From a candidate division WOR-3 bacterium (GTDB taxonomy: Bacteria; Hydrothermota; Hydrothermia; LBFQ01), in assembly GCA_027050205.1 (NCBI GenBank), contig JALUCS010000047.1, positions 1 to 15,528 on the forward strand: 15,528 nucleotides of DNA, given 5' to 3'. The notes beneath the pieces are model-generated. The model made no database searches, had not been told where the DNA came from, and worked only from the letters and a program-made list of their open reading frames with translations. Positions 8,856-15,528 of this stretch are shown here, one piece after another. The position numbers and the translations under genes were made by a program. Numbering within the stretch: position 1 is the stretch's first letter; each line of letters opens with the position of its first letter.

Positions 8856-9914
8856 ATGAGGAAAATTGGGGGTTTAATTTCGGTTTTGACACCGGCCCTA
8901 CTCTTAGGTCAGACGGTGGTGGAATACAAGGCTCCACAGAAGCCGGAGTACTACAGACCCTACAAGCTCTTCATAGGACCGACGGCCGACGTCCTTCCGG
9001 GTGGGACCTTCTGGCTGTACGGCGGGGCCTTCTTCATGAACTGGTCGGAGTACGGAATAGGGCAGGGAGTTTTCAACGTGGGAATAGCAGATCTGGTGGA
9101 GGTGAAGGTCTCCATAGGTAGGCTCCTCTCCAATCTCTCCACCGGTGGTGCGAACGAGTTTGCGACGGCGATGCGGGTAAAGGTGGTGGATACCCGCCTC
9201 TTCAAAACCGGCGTTGAGCTTCGCCTCGCCCCGGTGATAGGGCAGATAGAGATAGACACCCTCGTTGTAGAGGATACCGTCAACGACAGGTACGACTACT
9301 ACACCTTCACGCGGGACTTCAGGAGCAGGTCCGCAACCCTCTTCGTCCCCGCCACCTTCTACATCGGCAACTTCACCCTCGCCTTCGGCGGATCCATAAC
9401 CCAGTACGGCACCACCATAAAGATCTCCGGCGCCCTCCCCGACACGGCCAACAACTGCAGCGAGCATCCCAACTACAACTGCGACCTCCTCAAGAAGTAC
9501 TACAAGAGTCCGGCCTTCAGGGCCTCCGTGGAGGAGGAGAGAAGTACCTTCTACGGTGGGTACGGGGGGATCTCCTACCGCTGGAAGGGCAACACGGAGC
9601 TGATCGGCGAGGTCCATATGCTTCCGAGGGTACTGTACCGCACCCGCCTGAAGAACACCAGCGACACCCTCCCCGCCTACAAGAAGTGGGCTTTAGAGAA
9701 CCGCTACACCGAGAACTCCTTCTCTCCCGTCGTCCTCACCTTCGCTGGTATGAGGTACTCTATGAACAGGTACCTCTCCGTGGATGCGGGTATAGTCCTG
9801 CCCTACGACCCCACCCTGGGGAGCCAGCCCATAGACCTACTGAACGCCATGATCCACGCCAACCTGAACCTCATATTCAGCCTTAGCGACGTAGGTAGGT
9901 GGCTCTCCTTATGA
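8856..9914 (+). CDS. Secreted/outer-membrane beta-barrel-like hypothetical protein (possibly YjbH-like)
   Basis: Signal-peptide-like N-terminus (MRKIGGLISVLTPALLLG), PTADVL motif near the N-terminus, and amphipathic aromatic strands (YGGYGGISYRW, FAGMRYSM, LSVDAGI). Confidence 0.65.
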   Translation: MRKIGGLISVLTPALLLGQTVVEYKAPQKPEYYRPYKLFIGPTADVLPGGTFWLYGGAFFMNWSEYGIGQGVFNVGIADLVEVKVSIGRLLSNLSTGGANEFATAMRVKVVDTRLFKTGVELRLAPVIGQIEIDTLVVEDTVNDRYDYYTFTRDFRSRSATLFVPATFYIGNFTLAFGGSITQYGTTIKISGALPDTANNCSEHPNYNCDLLKKYYKSPAFRASVEEERSTFYGGYGGISYRWKGNTELIGEVHMLPRVLYRTRLKNTSDTLPAYKKWALENRYTENSFSPVVLTFAGMRYSMNRYLSVDAGIVLPYDPTLGSQPIDLLNAMIHANLNLIFSLSDVGRWLSL

Positions 9915-9924
9915 GGAGGCCGGT

Positions 9925-10815
9925 ATGTTAGTCGCACTGCTGTCCTCGGAGGTGGTATCCCTCGGCTTTGATACGCCGGAGAACGTCAAGAGGTACGAGG
10001 AGGTGGTGGATAGTCTGACGGCCAGTATGGCGTGGGGGGTAGTCATCGTGGGGGAGGGGGATACGGTCCTCTTGGGGGACTTCCTCCTCGGTACGGCCCC
10101 CCTGACCTTCCAGCCGGACACCTTCCCCGTCCTCATAACCGTCAAGGGGAGAGGGGGTAGCCGCGTCTTCTCCATAGACGCCGATACGGAGACCGTGGTC
10201 GTCATATACGCCACTCCCCCGTCGGAGGAGAAAGCCGAGGAGGTGAAACTCCCACCCTACGAGGAGGTGAGGGACGGGTACGCCTTCAACCTGTACGGCA
10301 AACGGGTGATAGTGGTAAAGAGCATGAGGAGGGGATGGAACCGGATAGAGACCTTCACGGACACGGCGACCCTCAAGTACTACTGGCCTCGGATAGACAG
10401 CCTGGTGAAGCTCGTAGAGGGCAAGGGGATGGTCTTCATCGGGGCAATGAGCCTCAAGATAGACGGCGTTAAGTACCCTCCGTTGACCGAGGTCGTTAAG
10501 GGTGTCCCCGGAGGGATACACAAGGTCCAGGCCAGGGGGGTGATAGGTAAGGTGAGGGCCTACGTATCCCTGGACAGCGCAGACGTGGTGGTCTTCGTTC
10601 TGGAACCTTCTCCCCCACACTTCTCCCTCTACGCCTCCCGTATGAACCCCCTCCAACAGGAGTCTCCGTACTCGTACGGCTACATAGGGGCTGCGGTGGG
10701 TGGAGGTGTGGGATGTTGCGTCGGCATCTCCGCCAACGCCCCGTTCGTCGGGTGTTTGGTTGGCAGCGTAGTGGGTTGGGTGTTGGGAACCCTACTCGGC
10801 TCCTCGTGTATGTAG
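9925..10815 (+). CDS. Hypothetical membrane-anchored protein with two PEGA-like segments and a C-terminal Gly-zipper
   Basis: GAGGAGG SD at 9913-9919. PEGA-like segments GDTVLLGDFLLGTAPL and LKIDGVKYPP...GVPGGIHKVQARG. C-terminal hydrophobic GxxxG-rich helices. Confidence 0.65.
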   Translation: MLVALLSSEVVSLGFDTPENVKRYEEVVDSLTASMAWGVVIVGEGDTVLLGDFLLGTAPLTFQPDTFPVLITVKGRGGSRVFSIDADTETVVVIYATPPSEEKAEEVKLPPYEEVRDGYAFNLYGKRVIVVKSMRRGWNRIETFTDTATLKYYWPRIDSLVKLVEGKGMVFIGAMSLKIDGVKYPPLTEVVKGVPGGIHKVQARGVIGKVRAYVSLDSADVVVFVLEPSPPHFSLYASRMNPLQQESPYSYGYIGAAVGGGVGCCVGISANAPFVGCLVGSVVGWVLGTLLGSSCM

Positions 10816-10838: not shown

Positions 10839-11597
10839 ATGCCCAAAGTTAAGATAGCCGTAAGGGATCTGAAGTTTTACTACGGCAGCAAGAGGGTCCT
10901 TCACGGCATCACGATGGACATATACGAGAAGAAGGTCACCGCCATAATCGGACCCTCCGGGTGCGGAAAGACCACCTTCGTACGGGTCCTGAACCGCATA
11001 TACGAGACCATAGAGGGGGCGAGGGCGGAGGGGGAGGTCCTCCTTGACGGCGAGAACATCCTAAGTAAGGACTACGACGTCATAGCCCTCCGCAGTAAGG
11101 TGGGGATGGTCTTCCAGAAGCCCAACCCCTTCCCCAAGTCCATTTACGAGAACGTTGCCTTCGGCCTCAAGATCAGGGGGATAAAGAAGAAGTCCATCTT
11201 AGACGAGAAGGTGGAGGACGCCCTGCGGAAGGCCGCCCTCTGGGACGAGGTGAAGGACAGGCTCCACGACCACGCCTACTCCCTCTCCGGGGGACAGCAG
11301 CAGCGACTCTGTATAGCACGGGCCTTGGCCGTTGAGCCGGAGGTCCTACTCTTTGACGAGCCTACGAGTGCCATAGACCCGGTGGGGACGGCCCGCATAG
11401 AGGCCCTGATGAAGGAGCTCTCCAAGAGCATAACCGTCGTCTTGGTCACCCACAGTATGCACCAGGCCGCCCGCATATCCGACTACACGGCCTTCTTCCA
11501 CAGCGGCAACCTCATAGAGTTCGCTCCCACGGCCGAACTCTTCACACGTCCAAAGAACAAGCTGACGGAGGATTACATCACCGGAAGGTTCGGTTGA
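10839..11597 (+). CDS. pstB: Phosphate ABC transporter ATP-binding protein
   Basis: Walker [65 protein letters not shown] and C-terminal [10 protein letters not shown]. Confidence 0.96.
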
Positions 11598-12724
11598 TGC
11601 GGGTCCTCCTCTTCGGGTACTTCACCAAGGAGATGGGGGGGAAGGGGACGGGGGGTGTAGCCACCTACATCCGAGACCTGGCCTTGGGCCTCAAGGATGC
11701 GGGCCACGAGGTGGCCGTATGGGGGGAGAACGCCCGGTTCTGGAGGAGAAAGTGGAAAGGGATAACCCTCTACGGCGCCCCGAACAAGTACCTCCTACCC
11801 CTATACTGGCTCCGCAATCCGACTCTACGCATAGATAGGGAGTGGTTCTGGAAGACTGGGGGGGATAGTGTCCTAAGAGATTTCAAACCCTATGTGGTAC
11901 ATTCCCATTCTCCCCATCACGTTATGACCCCACATCTGAAGAGCGACGAGGTCCCCCTCGTCATAACCTTCCCGTCTATCCACTTCTACAAGTTCGCACC
12001 GAACGAGAGGCTCAAAAGGAGGGCCTACGAGACCTACAGGGCTTCAATAGATAGGGCCGATTACGTACTCTTCTTGAGCGATAAGATTAGGGAAGAGGTT
12101 CAAACCCTGTTCCATATCCCAAAACCCACGAAGGTCATATACCCGCTTATAGATACCTCCCGGTTTCATCCGATGCCGAGGGAGGAGGCGCGGGAGGCTC
12201 TGGGTCTCCCTAAGGGGGAGGTGTTGGTGGGATTTGCGGGACTCCTCACCGGAAGGAAGGGGGAGGACCTACTGATTGAGGCCTCCCGTGGGAAGGAATG
12301 GGTGGTGGTTTTTGCGGGTGGGGGGCCGGGTATAGATAAGGCCAAGGAGATGTGCGAAGAGGTGGGGTGCAGGGCCGTATTCCTTGGTGATCTTGATAGC
12401 GAAGGGATGCTCCGCTTCTACAACGCTATAGACGTATTCGTCCTGCCCTCCCGTAGCGAGACCTTCGGTATAGTGGTGATAGAGGCCATGGCTTGCGGTA
12501 GGACGGTCGTCGTATCCCGCGAGGTGCCGGAGGAGGCCGCCCCGGAGGGCCTATCTTACAGGGTAGGTCTAACGCCGGAGGAGGTCAGGGAGGGCGTGGA
12601 GAAAGCCCTTTCATCTCCATTCCCACCTGATAGGCTCATCGCTTATGCGAAGCGGTTCTCCGACCCCCATCGCTTCGTTGGTGAGCATCTGAAGGTGTAT
12701 TCGGAGGTCCTGCGTAGAAGGTAA
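11597..12724 (+). CDS. Glycosyltransferase family 4 (GT-B fold)
   Basis: N-terminal GGVATY..DLA..L...GHEV, RKG, and FVLPSRSETFGIVVIEAMACG (Ex7E motif). ATG 11597 overlaps the pstB stop (TGATG); alternative TTG start at 11594. Confidence 0.92.
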   Translation: MRVLLFGYFTKEMGGKGTGGVATYIRDLALGLKDAGHEVAVWGENARFWRRKWKGITLYGAPNKYLLPLYWLRNPTLRIDREWFWKTGGDSVLRDFKPYVVHSHSPHHVMTPHLKSDEVPLVITFPSIHFYKFAPNERLKRRAYETYRASIDRADYVLFLSDKIREEVQTLFHIPKPTKVIYPLIDTSRFHPMPREEAREALGLPKGEVLVGFAGLLTGRKGEDLLIEASRGKEWVVVFAGGGPGIDKAKEMCEEVGCRAVFLGDLDSEGMLRFYNAIDVFVLPSRSETFGIVVIEAMACGRTVVVSREVPEEAAPEGLSYRVGLTPEEVREGVEKALSSPFPPDRLIAYAKRFSDPHRFVGEHLKVYSEVLRRR

Positions 12725-12748
12725 ATCGGCCTTAAAATAAGGGGTGGT

Positions 12749-13360
12749 ATGGGGGTAGCCGTAGCCGAAAAGTCCGGAGCCGTTGAAAATAGAGATGAGG
12801 AGGGACGAAGGGAGAAGCTCTTGAGACTCCTGACCTACGAGGTGGTTGATGGAAAGCCCATCTATTACCGTGGCTATAGAGACGTCCTTGAGGGGAAAAA
12901 ACAACCGGAGGAGGTCATGGGAGCGAGCTTTCTGCACGGCAGGCTGGTGATACTTCTGGGAGCCTTTCTAAGGGAGAAACTGAAGGGGAGGTACGTCGTT
13001 TCGGGTGGGGAGTTAGGCTATCTGATAGAGGGAGGATGGAGGAACTTGGACATCGCTGTCTTCAGGTACGAGGACGTAAAGGACAAGTTAAGGAGCAGGA
13101 GGTACATAGACATACCGCCCGTGTTGGTAGTTGAGGTTGATACGCACGGCGATGTTGAGAACGAGATGGCCTACATAAGCGGGAAGGTTGAGGATCTGTT
13201 GAGGAGTGGGGTTGAGAAGGTGGTTTGGATATTCACGGATTCGGAGAAGGTTCTGATAGCGGAGAGGGGTAAGGATTGGGTGATAGTCGGATGGGACAGG
13301 GATATAGACCTGTCAGAGGGTCTGAAGTTGAACTTGGAAGACCTTTTGAAGCAGCCATAG
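12749..13360 (+). CDS. Uma2 family (DUF820) putative endonuclease, copy 1
   Basis: YEVVDG...MG.S..H, LDIAVF, PPVLVVEVD, K..DLL..GVEKVVWI pattern of Uma2/PD-(D/E)XK-fold proteins. Confidence 0.85.
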   Translation: MGVAVAEKSGAVENRDEEGRREKLLRLLTYEVVDGKPIYYRGYRDVLEGKKQPEEVMGASFLHGRLVILLGAFLREKLKGRYVVSGGELGYLIEGGWRNLDIAVFRYEDVKDKLRSRRYIDIPPVLVVEVDTHGDVENEMAYISGKVEDLLRSGVEKVVWIFTDSEKVLIAERGKDWVIVGWDRDIDLSEGLKLNLEDLLKQP

Positions 13361-13553
13361 AATGGGGGTTGGTATGGGTGTAGCGTTAGCAGAGAAGCCG
13401 GAGGTCGCCAAGGAGAAGGGAAGGGACGAGCGAAAGGAAAAACTCCTGAAGCTCCTGACCTACGAGGTGGTTGATGGGAAGCCTATCTACTACCGCGGCT
13501 ATAAGGACATCCTTGAAGGCAAAAAACAACCGGAGGAGGTTATGGGAAGCAGT
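13061..13553 (+). repeat. 493-bp direct repeat, copy A (3' half of Uma2 copy 1, junction, 5' part of copy 2)
   Basis: Matches 14933-15425 (offset 1872) with 7 mismatches counted by eye and no indels. Confidence 0.9.
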
Positions 13554-13985
13554 ACCCTACAGGCCTTCATAGTAAAGCGTCTCCTGATCTTCCTCGTCCA
13601 AGCCCTTGAAGGGAAAGGCTACGAGGTACTCCCCCACGAGGTCGGATTGGTCGGTAAAGGTTTCGTAAGGGCTTTGGACATAGGCATATTCAAGGGTGAT
13701 GCTGTGGAAATAACCGACACCTACACCGACGTACCCCCCGTTGTGGCGATAGAGGTAGATACGAAGGCAGATTTGGAGGGGGAGGGTTTTATGGAGTATA
13801 TGAAGCGAAAGATAGAGGACCTGTTGGGGTTTGGGGTTAAGAGGGTGATATGGATATTGACGAAGGGGAAGGTAGTGGTGATAGCAGAGGATCCGAAGAG
13901 GTGGGAGGTGCTTGACTGGAAGGACGAGGTTGAGATATGGGAAGGGGTTAGGTTGAGGCTATCAGACCTTCTAAAACGGCCATAG
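13374..13985 (+). CDS. Uma2 family putative endonuclease, copy 2 (most divergent)
   Basis: Same N-terminal block, then LDIGIF, PPVVAIEVDTKAD and KIEDLLGFGVKRVIWI. Start chosen by homology to copy 1; an in-frame ATG also exists at 13362. Confidence 0.85.
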   Translation: MGVALAEKPEVAKEKGRDERKEKLLKLLTYEVVDGKPIYYRGYKDILEGKKQPEEVMGSSTLQAFIVKRLLIFLVQALEGKGYEVLPHEVGLVGKGFVRALDIGIFKGDAVEITDTYTDVPPVVAIEVDTKADLEGEGFMEYMKRKIEDLLGFGVKRVIWILTKGKVVVIAEDPKRWEVLDWKDEVEIWEGVRLRLSDLLKRP

Positions 13986-13998
13986 AATGGGGGTTGGT

Positions 13999-14607
13999 AT
14001 GGGTGTAGCGTTAGCAGAGAAGCCGGAGGTTGCCAAGGAAAAAAGGGACGGGCGAAAGGAAAAACTCCTGAAGCTCCTAACTTACGAGGTGGTTGATGGG
14101 AAGCCCATCTACTACCGAGGCTATAAGGACGTACTTGAGGGTAAAAAACAACCGGAGGAAGTCATGGGAAGCAGCGCCTATCACGGCAGTCTCGTTGCTA
14201 TGCTTAGCTACTGGTTGATCAAAAATCTCGGTGGAAAGTACGCTGTTATGTCGGGGGAGTTGGGCTATCTGATAGAGGGAGGATGGAGGAACTTGGACGT
14301 AGCCGTCTTCAGGTACGAGGACGTAAAGGACAAGCTTGAAAGCGAGAACTACATAGACGTACCGCCCGTGCTGGTGGTTGAGATAAACGTCAGGGCAGAG
14401 GTTGAGAGTGAGATGGAGTACGTCCTAAAGAAGAGCGAAGACCTTCTCAATAGTGGAGTTGAGAGGGTGGTATGGATATTCACGAGGCCGAGGAAGGTTA
14501 TGGTGTTTGAGAGGGGCAAGGGTGGAGTCATTCTTGACTGGGAGGACGAGATTCCGCTCGTTGAGGGGCTTAGGTTGAAGCTACCGGACCTCTTAAAACG
14601 GCCATAG
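13999..14607 (+). CDS. Uma2 family putative endonuclease, copy 3
   Basis: LDVAVF, PPVLVVEIN and KSEDLLNSGVERVVWI. Alternative ATG at 13987. Confidence 0.85.
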   Translation: MGVALAEKPEVAKEKRDGRKEKLLKLLTYEVVDGKPIYYRGYKDVLEGKKQPEEVMGSSAYHGSLVAMLSYWLIKNLGGKYAVMSGELGYLIEGGWRNLDVAVFRYEDVKDKLESENYIDVPPVLVVEINVRAEVESEMEYVLKKSEDLLNSGVERVVWIFTRPRKVMVFERGKGGVILDWEDEIPLVEGLRLKLPDLLKRP

Positions 14608-14620
14608 AATGGAGGTTGGT

Positions 14621-15232
14621 ATGGGCGTAGCGTTAGCAGAGAAGCCAGAGGTTGCCAAGGAGAAAGGGAAGGATGAGCGCAGGGAAAGGCTCTTGAGACT
14701 TCTAACCTACGAGGTCGTTGATGGGAAGCCTATCTACTACCGAGGCTATAAAGACGTACTTGAGGGTAAAAAACAACCGGAGGAGGTTATGGGAGCGAGT
14801 TTCCTTCATGCGAGATTGGTCGCCAAGATAACATCCTGGTTGGATAGGATGTTGGGAGATAGATATGTGGTTTCCAGTGGAGAGTTAGGCTACTTTGTGG
14901 AAAAGGGTTGGAGGAGTTTGGACGTGGCCCTATTCAGGTACGAGGACGTAAAGGACAAGTTAAGGAGCAGGAGGTACATAGACATACCGCCCGTGTTGGT
15001 AGTTGAGGTTGATACGCACGGCGATGTTGAGAACGAGATGGCCTACATAAGCGGGAAGGTTGAGGATCTGTTGAGGAGTGGGGTTGAGAAGGTGGTTTGG
15101 ATATTCACGGATTCGGAGAAGGTTCTGATAGCGGAGAGGGGTAGGGATTGGGTGATAGTCGGATGGGACAGGGATATAGACCTGTTAGAGGGTCTGAAGT
15201 TGAACTTGGAAGACCTTTTGAAGCAGCCATAG
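14621..15232 (+). CDS. Uma2 family putative endonuclease, copy 4
   Basis: LDVALF and PPVLVVEVD; C-terminal half nearly identical to copy 1. Alternative ATG at 14609. Confidence 0.85.
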   Translation: MGVALAEKPEVAKEKGKDERRERLLRLLTYEVVDGKPIYYRGYKDVLEGKKQPEEVMGASFLHARLVAKITSWLDRMLGDRYVVSSGELGYFVEKGWRSLDVALFRYEDVKDKLRSRRYIDIPPVLVVEVDTHGDVENEMAYISGKVEDLLRSGVEKVVWIFTDSEKVLIAERGRDWVIVGWDRDIDLLEGLKLNLEDLLKQP

Positions 15233-15425
15233 AATGGGGGTTGGTATGGGTGTAGCGTTAGTGGAGAAGCCGGAGGTCGCCAAGGAGAAGGGAAGGGACG
15301 AGCGAAAGGAAAAACTCCTGAAGCTCCTGACCTACGAGGTGGTTGATGGGAAGCCTATCTACTACCGAGGCTATAAGGATGTCCTTGAAGGCAAAAAACA
15401 ACCGGAGGAGGTTATGGGAAGCAGT
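14933..15425 (+). repeat. 493-bp direct repeat, copy B (3' half of Uma2 copy 4, junction, 5' part of copy 5)
   Basis: Matches 13061-13553 at about 98.6% identity. Confidence 0.9.
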
Positions 15426-15528
15426 TATCTTCAGGGTAAGCTTATAGCAGCCCTCGTCGGGGAGCTTTACTCCAAGCTTGGGAGGAAATACGCCGTAGTA
15501 ACGAACGAATTGACACTTGTCCTCAAGA
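15246..15528 (+). CDS. Uma2 family putative endonuclease, copy 5 (truncated by window end; absent from the ORF track)
   Basis: Translates MGVALVEKPEVAKEKGRDERKEKLLKLLTYEVVDGKPIYYRGYKDVLEGKKQPEEVMGSSYLQGKLIAALVGELYSKLGRKYAVVTNELTLVLK and is open to the window edge. Confidence 0.85.
   Translation, partial: MGVALVEKPEVAKEKGRDERKEKLLKLLTYEVVDGKPIYYRGYKDVLEGKKQPEEVMGSSYLQGKLIAALVGELYSKLGRKYAVVTNELTLVLK

Follow-up and report, generated by a model that had tools for sequence, protein, structure and literature searches.

The window analysed here is the entire contig JALUCS010000047.1 (C47), 15,528 nucleotides long, from the 2.05 Mb genome (G000; assembly GCA_027050205.1) of a candidate division WOR-3 bacterium, referred to below as the host. 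Its right end carries five open reading frames (ORFs) of the Uma2 nuclease family, arranged head-to-tail downstream of a GT4 glycosyltransferase gene, with distances of 625, 625, 622 and 625 bp between consecutive starts (Table 1). Copies 1 to 4 are complete, encode 202-203 amino acids and contain no stops, and copy 5 is truncated by the contig end. This arrangement had been read from the sequence alone, and the ORF calls confirm it. The copies are mosaics that have exchanged parts, and each contains a conserved internal GGAGG-ATG site that is probably used as a second translation start.

The Uma2 genes of the window and of the host

Pfam assigns three of the four complete copies to PF05685 (Uma2), with 32-34 bits against a cut-off of 27. 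Copy 2 scores below the cut-off, yet is 50-57% identical to the other copies. NCBIfam returned no match for the four complete copies, and a PDB sequence search with copy 3 or with alignment A2 gave no meaningful match. The AlphaFold2 model of copy 3 (predicted local distance difference test, pLDDT, of 91.6) has a TT1808-like PD-(D/E)XK fold with an N-terminal subdomain. Its top Foldseek and VIA matches, far above all else, are the PDB entries 1wdj, 3ot2, 9y1l and 6okh (for 1wdj, VIA Z 17.7 and a root-mean-square deviation of 3.2 over 158 aligned residues). Domain match and fold together bear out the Uma2 identity that the sequence-only reading had assigned. The H-PD-EXX-K layout is present, with leucine or isoleucine instead of the proline before the aspartate. 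The putative catalytic D, E and K, which the same reading had listed as retained, are found in all four complete copies and in all 37 complete family copies collected from seven genomes of the host family, as is an H or Q (37/37). The residues next to the catalytic glutamate differ among C-terminal modules (EVDTH, EINVR, EVDTK, EVDVK). The N-terminal arm holds six of the 12 invariant residues of the subfamily (L27, Y29, E30, G34, P36 and Y39), plus E53. The sole PADLOC match, PDC-S03 to copy 3 (E=0.005), is weak and was discounted.

The intergenic gaps between the copies are 13 nt long and contain only a -10 box and a Shine-Dalgarno (SD) sequence. The junction motif TA(A/G)AAT lies ten bases upstream of each ATG. 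Of 806 non-operonic gene starts in the host genome, 43% have TANAAT at a distance of 5-12 nt upstream, versus 0.4% of 9,191 internal ATGs, and between positions 12600 and 15528 TANAAT occurs exactly five times, once per copy. Judged by this enrichment, each copy is likely to be its own transcription unit. No terminators or tRNA targets were found. For the lineage as a whole, the frequency of TANAAT close to non-operonic starts suggests widespread leaderless or very short-leader transcripts.

The window array is one of several. Ten contigs of the host carry about 40 Uma2 genes in total, comprising 36 PF05685 matches from the family search and four divergent copies missed by it; 11 belong to the window subfamily and 29 to two other subfamilies. 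With the exception of two contig-edge copies, all stand in tandem rows. A second five-copy array of the window subfamily lies at C93:7603-10717, and the last copy is at the end of C129. The rows of the two other subfamilies are found on C97 (six copies; 77365-80640), C122 (six; 15802-19086), C104 (five; 63705-66433), C49 (five; 10873-13629), C73 (three; 24476-26146) and C132 (three; 61562-63142), with one further gene at the start of C110. In these six arrays the subfamilies are mixed within rows, and the copies likewise show a constant arm, a variable helix and mosaic C-termini.

The window subfamily was detected in 13 of 41 genomes, namely in the host, in nine of 11 others of its family, in three of seven of the sister family, and in none of the 22 remaining genomes of the class. 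Beyond these relatives, 75 loci were collected from Aquificota, Bacteroidota, Chloroflexota and others (after removal of three host-relative loci from an initial 78); 17 have at least two copies in tandem, two have three and none has five, with many of the contigs being short. Viral contigs gave nine pattern matches, none of them to a relative. Broken Uma2 copies are present in two genomes (G007 and G009). Downstream of the GT4 gene, five congeners show four different neighbours, and none of these genomes has an array there. This is not evidence of mobility, because gene order is scrambled genus-wide. The variation of this neighbourhood among congeners also prevented a link by synteny between C47 and the copy that ends C129.

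Several observations concern the surroundings of related arrays. In the sister family, the arrays L036 and L037 (G014) and L038 (G017) have overlapping stop/start junctions, and the neighbours in G014 and G017 are what we take to be ribosomal-protein genes, L30-like upstream and L15- and SecY-like downstream. An unrelated gene of 260-278 amino acids lies within or beside a Uma2 array at L021 (G005:C41, 7858-8694) and L025 (G002:C39, 1191-1973); it has no PADLOC or NCBIfam match, and at the G005 array it has its own TAAAAT box. The host (C7, 1-1250) and L022 (G005:C98, 4313-5483) share an alanine dehydrogenase-like gene at 98.6% identity, most neighbouring orthologues being 73-89% identical; it is followed by a CRISPR array in the host and by a five-copy Uma2 array in G005.

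The best-matching sequencing run (X1) is recorded as a hydrothermal vent metagenome and may be the source sample. A 472-nt X1 contig links the GT4 gene to the variable segment of copy 1 with zero differences, and a 309-nt X1 contig, matching a congener homologue, extends copy 5 beyond the window end. No listed X1 piece covers the whole array, so that the internal copy order given here is the presumed one of the assembly. The high-depth X1 joints that were checked are matches to copies on C93 or C129. Separately assembled congeners have the same head-to-tail layout.

Table 1. Features of the Uma2 array and its upstream neighbour, in positions of the window
Feature	Positions	Strand	Remarks
Uma2 copy 1, 203 aa	12749..13360	+	helix allele FLHGRLVILL; C-terminal module R (EVDTH)
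Uma2 copy 2, 203 aa	13374..13985	+	helix allele TLQAFIVKRL; module K (EVDTK); under Pfam threshold
Uma2 copy 3, 202 aa	13999..14607	+	helix allele AYHGSLVAML; module E (EINVR); copy modelled; putative active site H62/D100/E128/K145
Uma2 copy 4, 203 aa	14621..15232	+	helix allele FLHARLVAKI; module R
Uma2 copy 5, cut at contig end	15246..15528	+	helix allele YLQGKLIAAL
TAAAAT, likely -10 box, copy 1	12733..12738	+	10 nt before ATG; TANAAT enriched at starts
TAGAAT, likely -10 box, copy 2	13358..13363	+	overlaps copy 1 stop codon
TAGAAT, likely -10 box, copy 3	13983..13988	+	
TAGAAT, likely -10 box, copy 4	14605..14610	+	
TAGAAT, likely -10 box, copy 5	15230..15235	+	
Internal GGAGG-N5-ATG, copy 1	12907..12919	+	Met57, predicted second start
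Internal GGAGG-N5-ATG, copy 2	13532..13544	+	Met57
Internal GGAGG-N5-ATG, copy 3	14154..14166	+	Met56; predicted 147-aa short form
Internal GGAGG-N5-ATG, copy 4	14779..14791	+	Met57
Internal GGAGG-N5-ATG, copy 5	15404..15416	+	Met57
Hypervariable helix segment, copy 1	12926..13009	+	
Hypervariable helix segment, copy 2	13551..13637	+	
Hypervariable helix segment, copy 3	14173..14256	+	residues 56-75, core of predicted homodimer interface
Hypervariable helix segment, copy 4	14798..14881	+	
Hypervariable helix segment, copy 5	15423..15506	+	
C-terminal module R, copy 1	13060..13360	+	left edge approximate; 2 mismatches with copy 4 across ~300 nt
GT4 glycosyltransferase gene	11594..12724	+	upstream of array, context only; in 5/5 congeners other genes downstream, no array

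Mosaic copies and their recombination

In each copy, a conserved N-terminal arm is followed by a hypervariable helix, then by a linker and finally by a C-terminal module. In the nine complete copies of the host, the mean identity falls from 87% in the N-terminal block to 44% in the next 28 codons, which encode the helix. The C-terminal modules of the same copies form classes, with 97-99% identity within and 55-66% between them. The sequence-only reading had described a conserved block followed by an abrupt switch to a segment unique to each copy. The switch is real, but the 'constant' block (81-94%) is less homogeneous than the C-terminal modules, and the segments are not unique. Copies 1 and 4 differ at just two positions in the last ~300 nt, and the C-terminal module of copy 3 is 97% identical to that of two copies on C93. 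The helix of copy 1 is 98% identical to the helix of copy 2 on C93, which is joined to module E.

Among the 37 family copies, 15 helix alleles and eight C-terminal modules occur in 21 combinations, and for five helices all ten pairings with modules R and E are found in the family. The pairwise homoplasy index (PHI) test gave p=0.002 for the nine host copies, 0.003 for 13 copies of G005 and 0.001 for 22 canonical host copies, each at the permutation floor. Base-by-base profiles show abrupt switches at several positions of the linker, which is coding. In the close pair G002 and G004, one copy stands in front of the same neighbour in both genomes, with module R in each case and with different helices; upstream of it lies an unrelated gene in G002 and another Uma2 copy in G004. 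Elsewhere in this pair, the same upstream gene is followed by a window-subfamily array in G002 (L027, G002:C115) and by a Uma2 gene of the canonical subfamily in G004 (L255, G004:C58). The proposal of an expandable, recombining array thus holds. Copy number, order and location vary among congeners, divergence along the genes is strongly non-uniform and exchanged modules can be traced at base resolution, which speaks against an old, static duplication.

The ratio of nonsynonymous to synonymous substitution rates (dN/dS) is 0.07-0.08 in the constant block, 0.07-0.19 within alleles, and 0.12-0.19 for alleles common to several species. The helix and module alleles are maintained, because the ratio within alleles is this low. 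The idea that the conserved block is kept as a recombination handle is not needed, since purifying selection acting on the protein, together with the promoter box and the predicted internal ribosome-binding site, explains its conservation.

The probable internal start site and the variable helix

The constant block ends in P-E-E-V-M, encoded by CCG GAG GAG GTT ATG, which places GGAGG five nucleotides before an in-frame ATG exactly at the boundary between the constant and the variable part. The first glutamate of the motif x-E-[E/A]-V-M is encoded by GAG in 45 of 47 genes of the host order and in 64 of 67 genes from other SD-using taxa (109/114 together), and the codon in front of it has G as its third base in 47/47 and 63/67 genes, respectively. 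As a control, other conserved glutamate columns in the 67 genes use GAG in 29/67, 20/65 and 32/66 cases (31-48%). Even genes with less than 40% GAG elsewhere (mean 26%) have GAG for the first motif glutamate in 40 of 44 cases. On a protein tree of 118 genes, the codon column of this glutamate changes five times, versus 26-32 times for three other invariant glutamates, so that relatedness is not the explanation for the conservation of GAG.

Bacteroidia, a group without SD use (PMC6847099, in the part available), provide a comparison. In 19 Bacteroidia genes, GAG is present in 3 of the 16 having glutamate at the motif position, and pairing with the anti-SD sequence equals the synonymous null (-2.1 vs -2.3), compared with -9.2 vs -5.5 and -8.9 vs -3.4 for the others. 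Four Kapaibacterium genes, scored separately, retain the motif. A Kozak-like A at position -3, present in 9/19 Bacteroidia genes and 8/108 elsewhere, is linked to a change from valine to isoleucine or leucine and was discounted.

The two other Uma2 subfamilies of the host make GGAGG before the homologous methionine from different residues. In the G-R-L-x-x-M subfamily it lies at 9 nt in 19 of the 21 sites found among 22 genes, and in the K-E-V-R-K-M subfamily at 8 nt in all five found among six. Such pairing energies are reached by just 5.4% and 1.2%, respectively, of 7,184 internal ATGs. For canonical Uma2 from other genomes, 92 ORFs were collected, 74 were anchored by pattern, and genes with a start codon at the site were scored against a synonymous null. 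This was exceeded in 23/25 genes of Chloroflexota, 13/17 of Aquificota and 4/4 of Brocadia, and in 8/13 of Bacteroidia (p=0.32), paralogues not being independent. These comparisons of codon choice demonstrate selection on the internal GGAGG across taxa, and they make it probable that the internal start is used.

A model of the copy 3 homodimer places the variable helix at the subunit contact. It reached a score of 0.61 (0.61, 0.00 and 0.64 in individual runs), against 0.29 for the best of three controls. The mark for this score is attained by 20/30 solved same-chain pairs and 1/23 solved single chains, counts that are only rough with an own alignment. At least 74% of the contacts agree between runs, and the partner pLDDT is at least 75. 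The predicted contacts involve residues 56-75, 79-89, 96-119 and 131-132 and none in 1-55, so that a short form starting at the internal methionine would retain the full predicted pairing surface, with only the arm absent. Variability is higher in interface columns than in the rest of the core (entropy 1.56 vs 1.15, p=0.005), and the most variable helix positions, residues 68, 71, 74 and 75, are among the closest predicted cross-chain pairs. A structure prediction had been suggested as a check on the variable helix, and in the model this helix lines the dimer surface, which makes specificity for a partner likelier than specificity for a DNA target.

Solved structures include chains of comparable length. 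The sequence in 9y1l has 188 residues with the conserved methionine at position 34, and its ordered chains comprise 151 and 153 residues; residues 36-188 of chain B align to model residues 56-201. In 1wdj, chain B has 152 residues and chain A 186.

Elsewhere in the window, three degenerate CRISPR-like 30-nt repeats (starting at 2027, 2093 and 2162, with spacers of 36 and 39 nt) occupy positions 2027-2191, between a gene for a 444-aa protein and gyrB, and no cas genes are present in the window. Three genes encoding 296-444 amino acids (690-2024, 8856-9914 and 9925-10815) have no informative Pfam or NCBIfam match.

A gene-within-gene model, its rivals and its relatives

It is possible, if a little short of probable, that the recombining Uma2 array consists of genes that each make a long form and an inhibitory short form, pairing through the hypervariable helix. 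Each copy would be a self-contained unit with its own promoter, yielding a long form of ~203 amino acids and a short form of ~147 without the conserved N-terminal arm. If the arm is needed for cutting, long/short dimers would be inactive, and the helix alleles could serve as a pairing code that separates each long/short pair from ~40 paralogues. Unequal crossing-over and gene conversion in the conserved stretches would allow helix and C-terminal modules to be gained, lost and combined anew. A precedent is found in the Rpn nucleases, in which, according to the available part of PMC10400941, the long nuclease is inhibited by a product of an internal start, and specificity depends on a variable helix. 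By analogy, stress, for example phage infection, might shift the ratio of long to short form and free the nuclease. Provided that the internal start is used, inhibition is the outcome that we would somewhat favour for the short form, and an anti-phage role of the arrays seems rather unlikely.

Several observations weigh against this model. In the host alone, Pro-Glu is encoded by CCG GAG in 1,204 of 1,867 cases, so that codon-pair bias leads one to expect the motif, and of 416 internal methionines with glutamate at -3, 75 carry GGAGG in register; the case for an internal start thus rests on conservation across taxa. The 19 Bacteroidia genes form one clade of the tree, and their loss of the motif therefore counts as a single event. 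Three of the 67 subfamily genes have no start codon at the internal site, and the motif is missing from some canonical lineages, such as the G-I/T-P-Y-A-M type in G053 and G054 and a Thermoanaerobacterium plasmid gene. The internal methionine is conserved family-wide and may be retained for protein reasons. No TANAAT, and hence no internal -10 box, is present inside the Uma2 genes (a test that covers this promoter type), and 52 hits included no stand-alone short gene other than two records labelled 'partial'. With respect to structure, one of the three dimer runs scored 0.00, and the structure model may have remembered solved Uma2 relatives, which would have aided the dimer score. The short PDB chains fit a short form, but can also be due to disorder or proteolysis, and the chains of 3ot2 and 6okh are full-length. 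The short form would retain D, E and K and could thus be active. Finally, the flanks of the inspected arrays are mostly housekeeping genes and not defence islands (by inspection only, with no formal enrichment test).

Alternatively, the arrays may encode single-product nucleases, selfish or defensive, with alleles that represent substrate specificities, and the GGAGG may have another role (ribosome pausing, a DNA hot spot) or be incidental. We consider this unlikely. In its favour are the mosaicism and the long-lived alleles, some of them common to several species; the residues next to the catalytic glutamate do differ between modules, the host codon-pair bias favours CCG GAG, and selfish proliferation was proposed in the available part of PMC551604. 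However, the presence of the motif 5-9 nt before an in-frame start in three subfamilies that build it from different residues is left unexplained, as is its loss in Bacteroidia, and the most variable helix residues face the partner chain in the model.

It is also conceivable, though less so, that the internal start is real and the roles are different, either with the short core as the active nuclease restrained by the arm, or with a long/short heterodimer as the working enzyme. The cross-taxon codon evidence applies equally to this case. None of the putative catalytic residues would be missing from the short form and its predicted interface would be complete, the 9y1l core folds without the arm, and 1wdj contains chains of both lengths. 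For an enzyme of long and short forms, Cas10d with Cas11d offers a precedent (cited in the available part of PMC10400941). Against an arm that is a simple lid, its many invariant aromatic and charged residues exceed what would be expected, and a strong, constitutive internal SD producing the active form would presumably be hazardous.

A site-specific cassette system, integron-like, shufflon-like or made of self-mobile cassettes that insert at a short core, with the junction CGGCC(A/T)TA(A/G)AAT as recombination site, appears very improbable. The first copies of several arrays do open with the tail of the junction motif, array loci differ by species, and G002 and G004 provide filled and empty sites. 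Yet no dedicated recombinase was found by Pfam in the window, nor by eye or own-genome match among the flanking ORFs inspected; the junctions between copies lack inverted repeats, and three filled-versus-empty comparisons between G002 and G004 revealed no target-site duplication or defined ends. The junction motif is the genome-wide -10 box, and the crossovers lie inside coding linkers at several positions, in a genus with scrambled gene order. In view of these negative results, shuffling is likely to be homologous, most simply by unequal crossing-over and gene conversion. That the array is an artefact of dispersed paralogues collapsed or mis-joined is hardly credible, for although a short-read assembly breaks within it and no listed X1 piece spans it, independent congener assemblies share the layout, X1 contigs match its unique segments without differences, and near-identical modules on helices that are 47-48% identical require recombination under any pairing.

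The gene-within-gene model relates the window arrays to Rpn (COG5464) in several respects. Both, as far as the available text on Rpn goes, involve a PD-(D/E)XK nuclease with patchy, multi-copy distribution and tandem-duplication arrays without target-site duplications, an internal SD and start (in the window arrays, at the level of sequence only), and a hypervariable helix that opens the short product and lies at the dimer interface (here, as a prediction of the model). The window arrays are nevertheless Rpn-like in working and not Rpn members. Uma2 is a different family of the same superfamily, Pfam giving only Uma2 and NCBIfam nothing. In the same source, Rpn varies by four-residue repeats, whereas Uma2 varies by whole-helix alleles, with no tetrad repeats in the alignment. 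Unlike Rpn, the window genes lack an internal TANAAT promoter and a stand-alone short gene. The Uma2 short form of ~147 amino acids would also have the catalytic residues, whereas RpnS is described there as a non-catalytic tail of ~5 kDa.

In type I restriction, shuffling of hsdS (hsd shufflons, domain movement) concerns two variable modules with conserved stretches between them, which are re-paired by recombination. The window arrays also re-pair two variable modules separated by conserved stretches. In contrast to hsdS, however, no methyltransferase, HsdR or invertase lies beside the Uma2 arrays, and the prediction for the variable helix is contact with a partner chain and not with DNA.

Tandem Uma2 cassettes as such are already in print. 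In the parts available, PMC551604 introduced the family, mentioned that tandem duplications occur but are rare, and did not settle what keeps these nucleases in check, and PMC2701414 described Uma2 proteins as likely solo toxins that form paralogue cassettes; PMC3424549, PMC9403480, PMC11855584, PMC10052474 and PMC4963859 add, to the extent of their available text, no Uma2 function. The window arrays share with Uma2/DUF820/COG4636 the fold, the H/Q-D-E-K layout with the lysine relocated to a helix, expansion in particular lineages, tandem cassettes and the lack of a partner gene. They differ in that the window subfamily is divergent, with LD for PD and a 20-residue insert in the N-terminal arm, in that arrays of 5-8 copies show combinatorial module exchange, and in having a conserved, probable internal start. 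For none of these features was a published description found in open-access main texts, and the same texts, taken without supplements, yielded no paper that pairs Uma2, DUF820 or COG4636 with an internal start.

As a tentative and rather doubtful generalisation, Uma2/DUF820, which ranks among the most expanded nuclease families of bacteria, might represent a second, larger class of gene-within-gene toxin-antitoxin systems, in which every gene would supply its own truncated inhibitor, with private helix pairs and with arrays that recombine helix and catalytic modules as a combinatorial defence repertoire. If true, the conserved internal start would answer the question of PMC551604, how these nucleases are restrained without a partner gene, and that of a commentary (PMC10400984), whether systems other than Rpn use an internal start for a dominant-negative regulator. 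It would also explain the expansion to tens of copies per genome, and the hypervariable helix as a pairing code. Finally, it would mean that earlier Uma2 expression constructs and crystals may have contained two protein forms.

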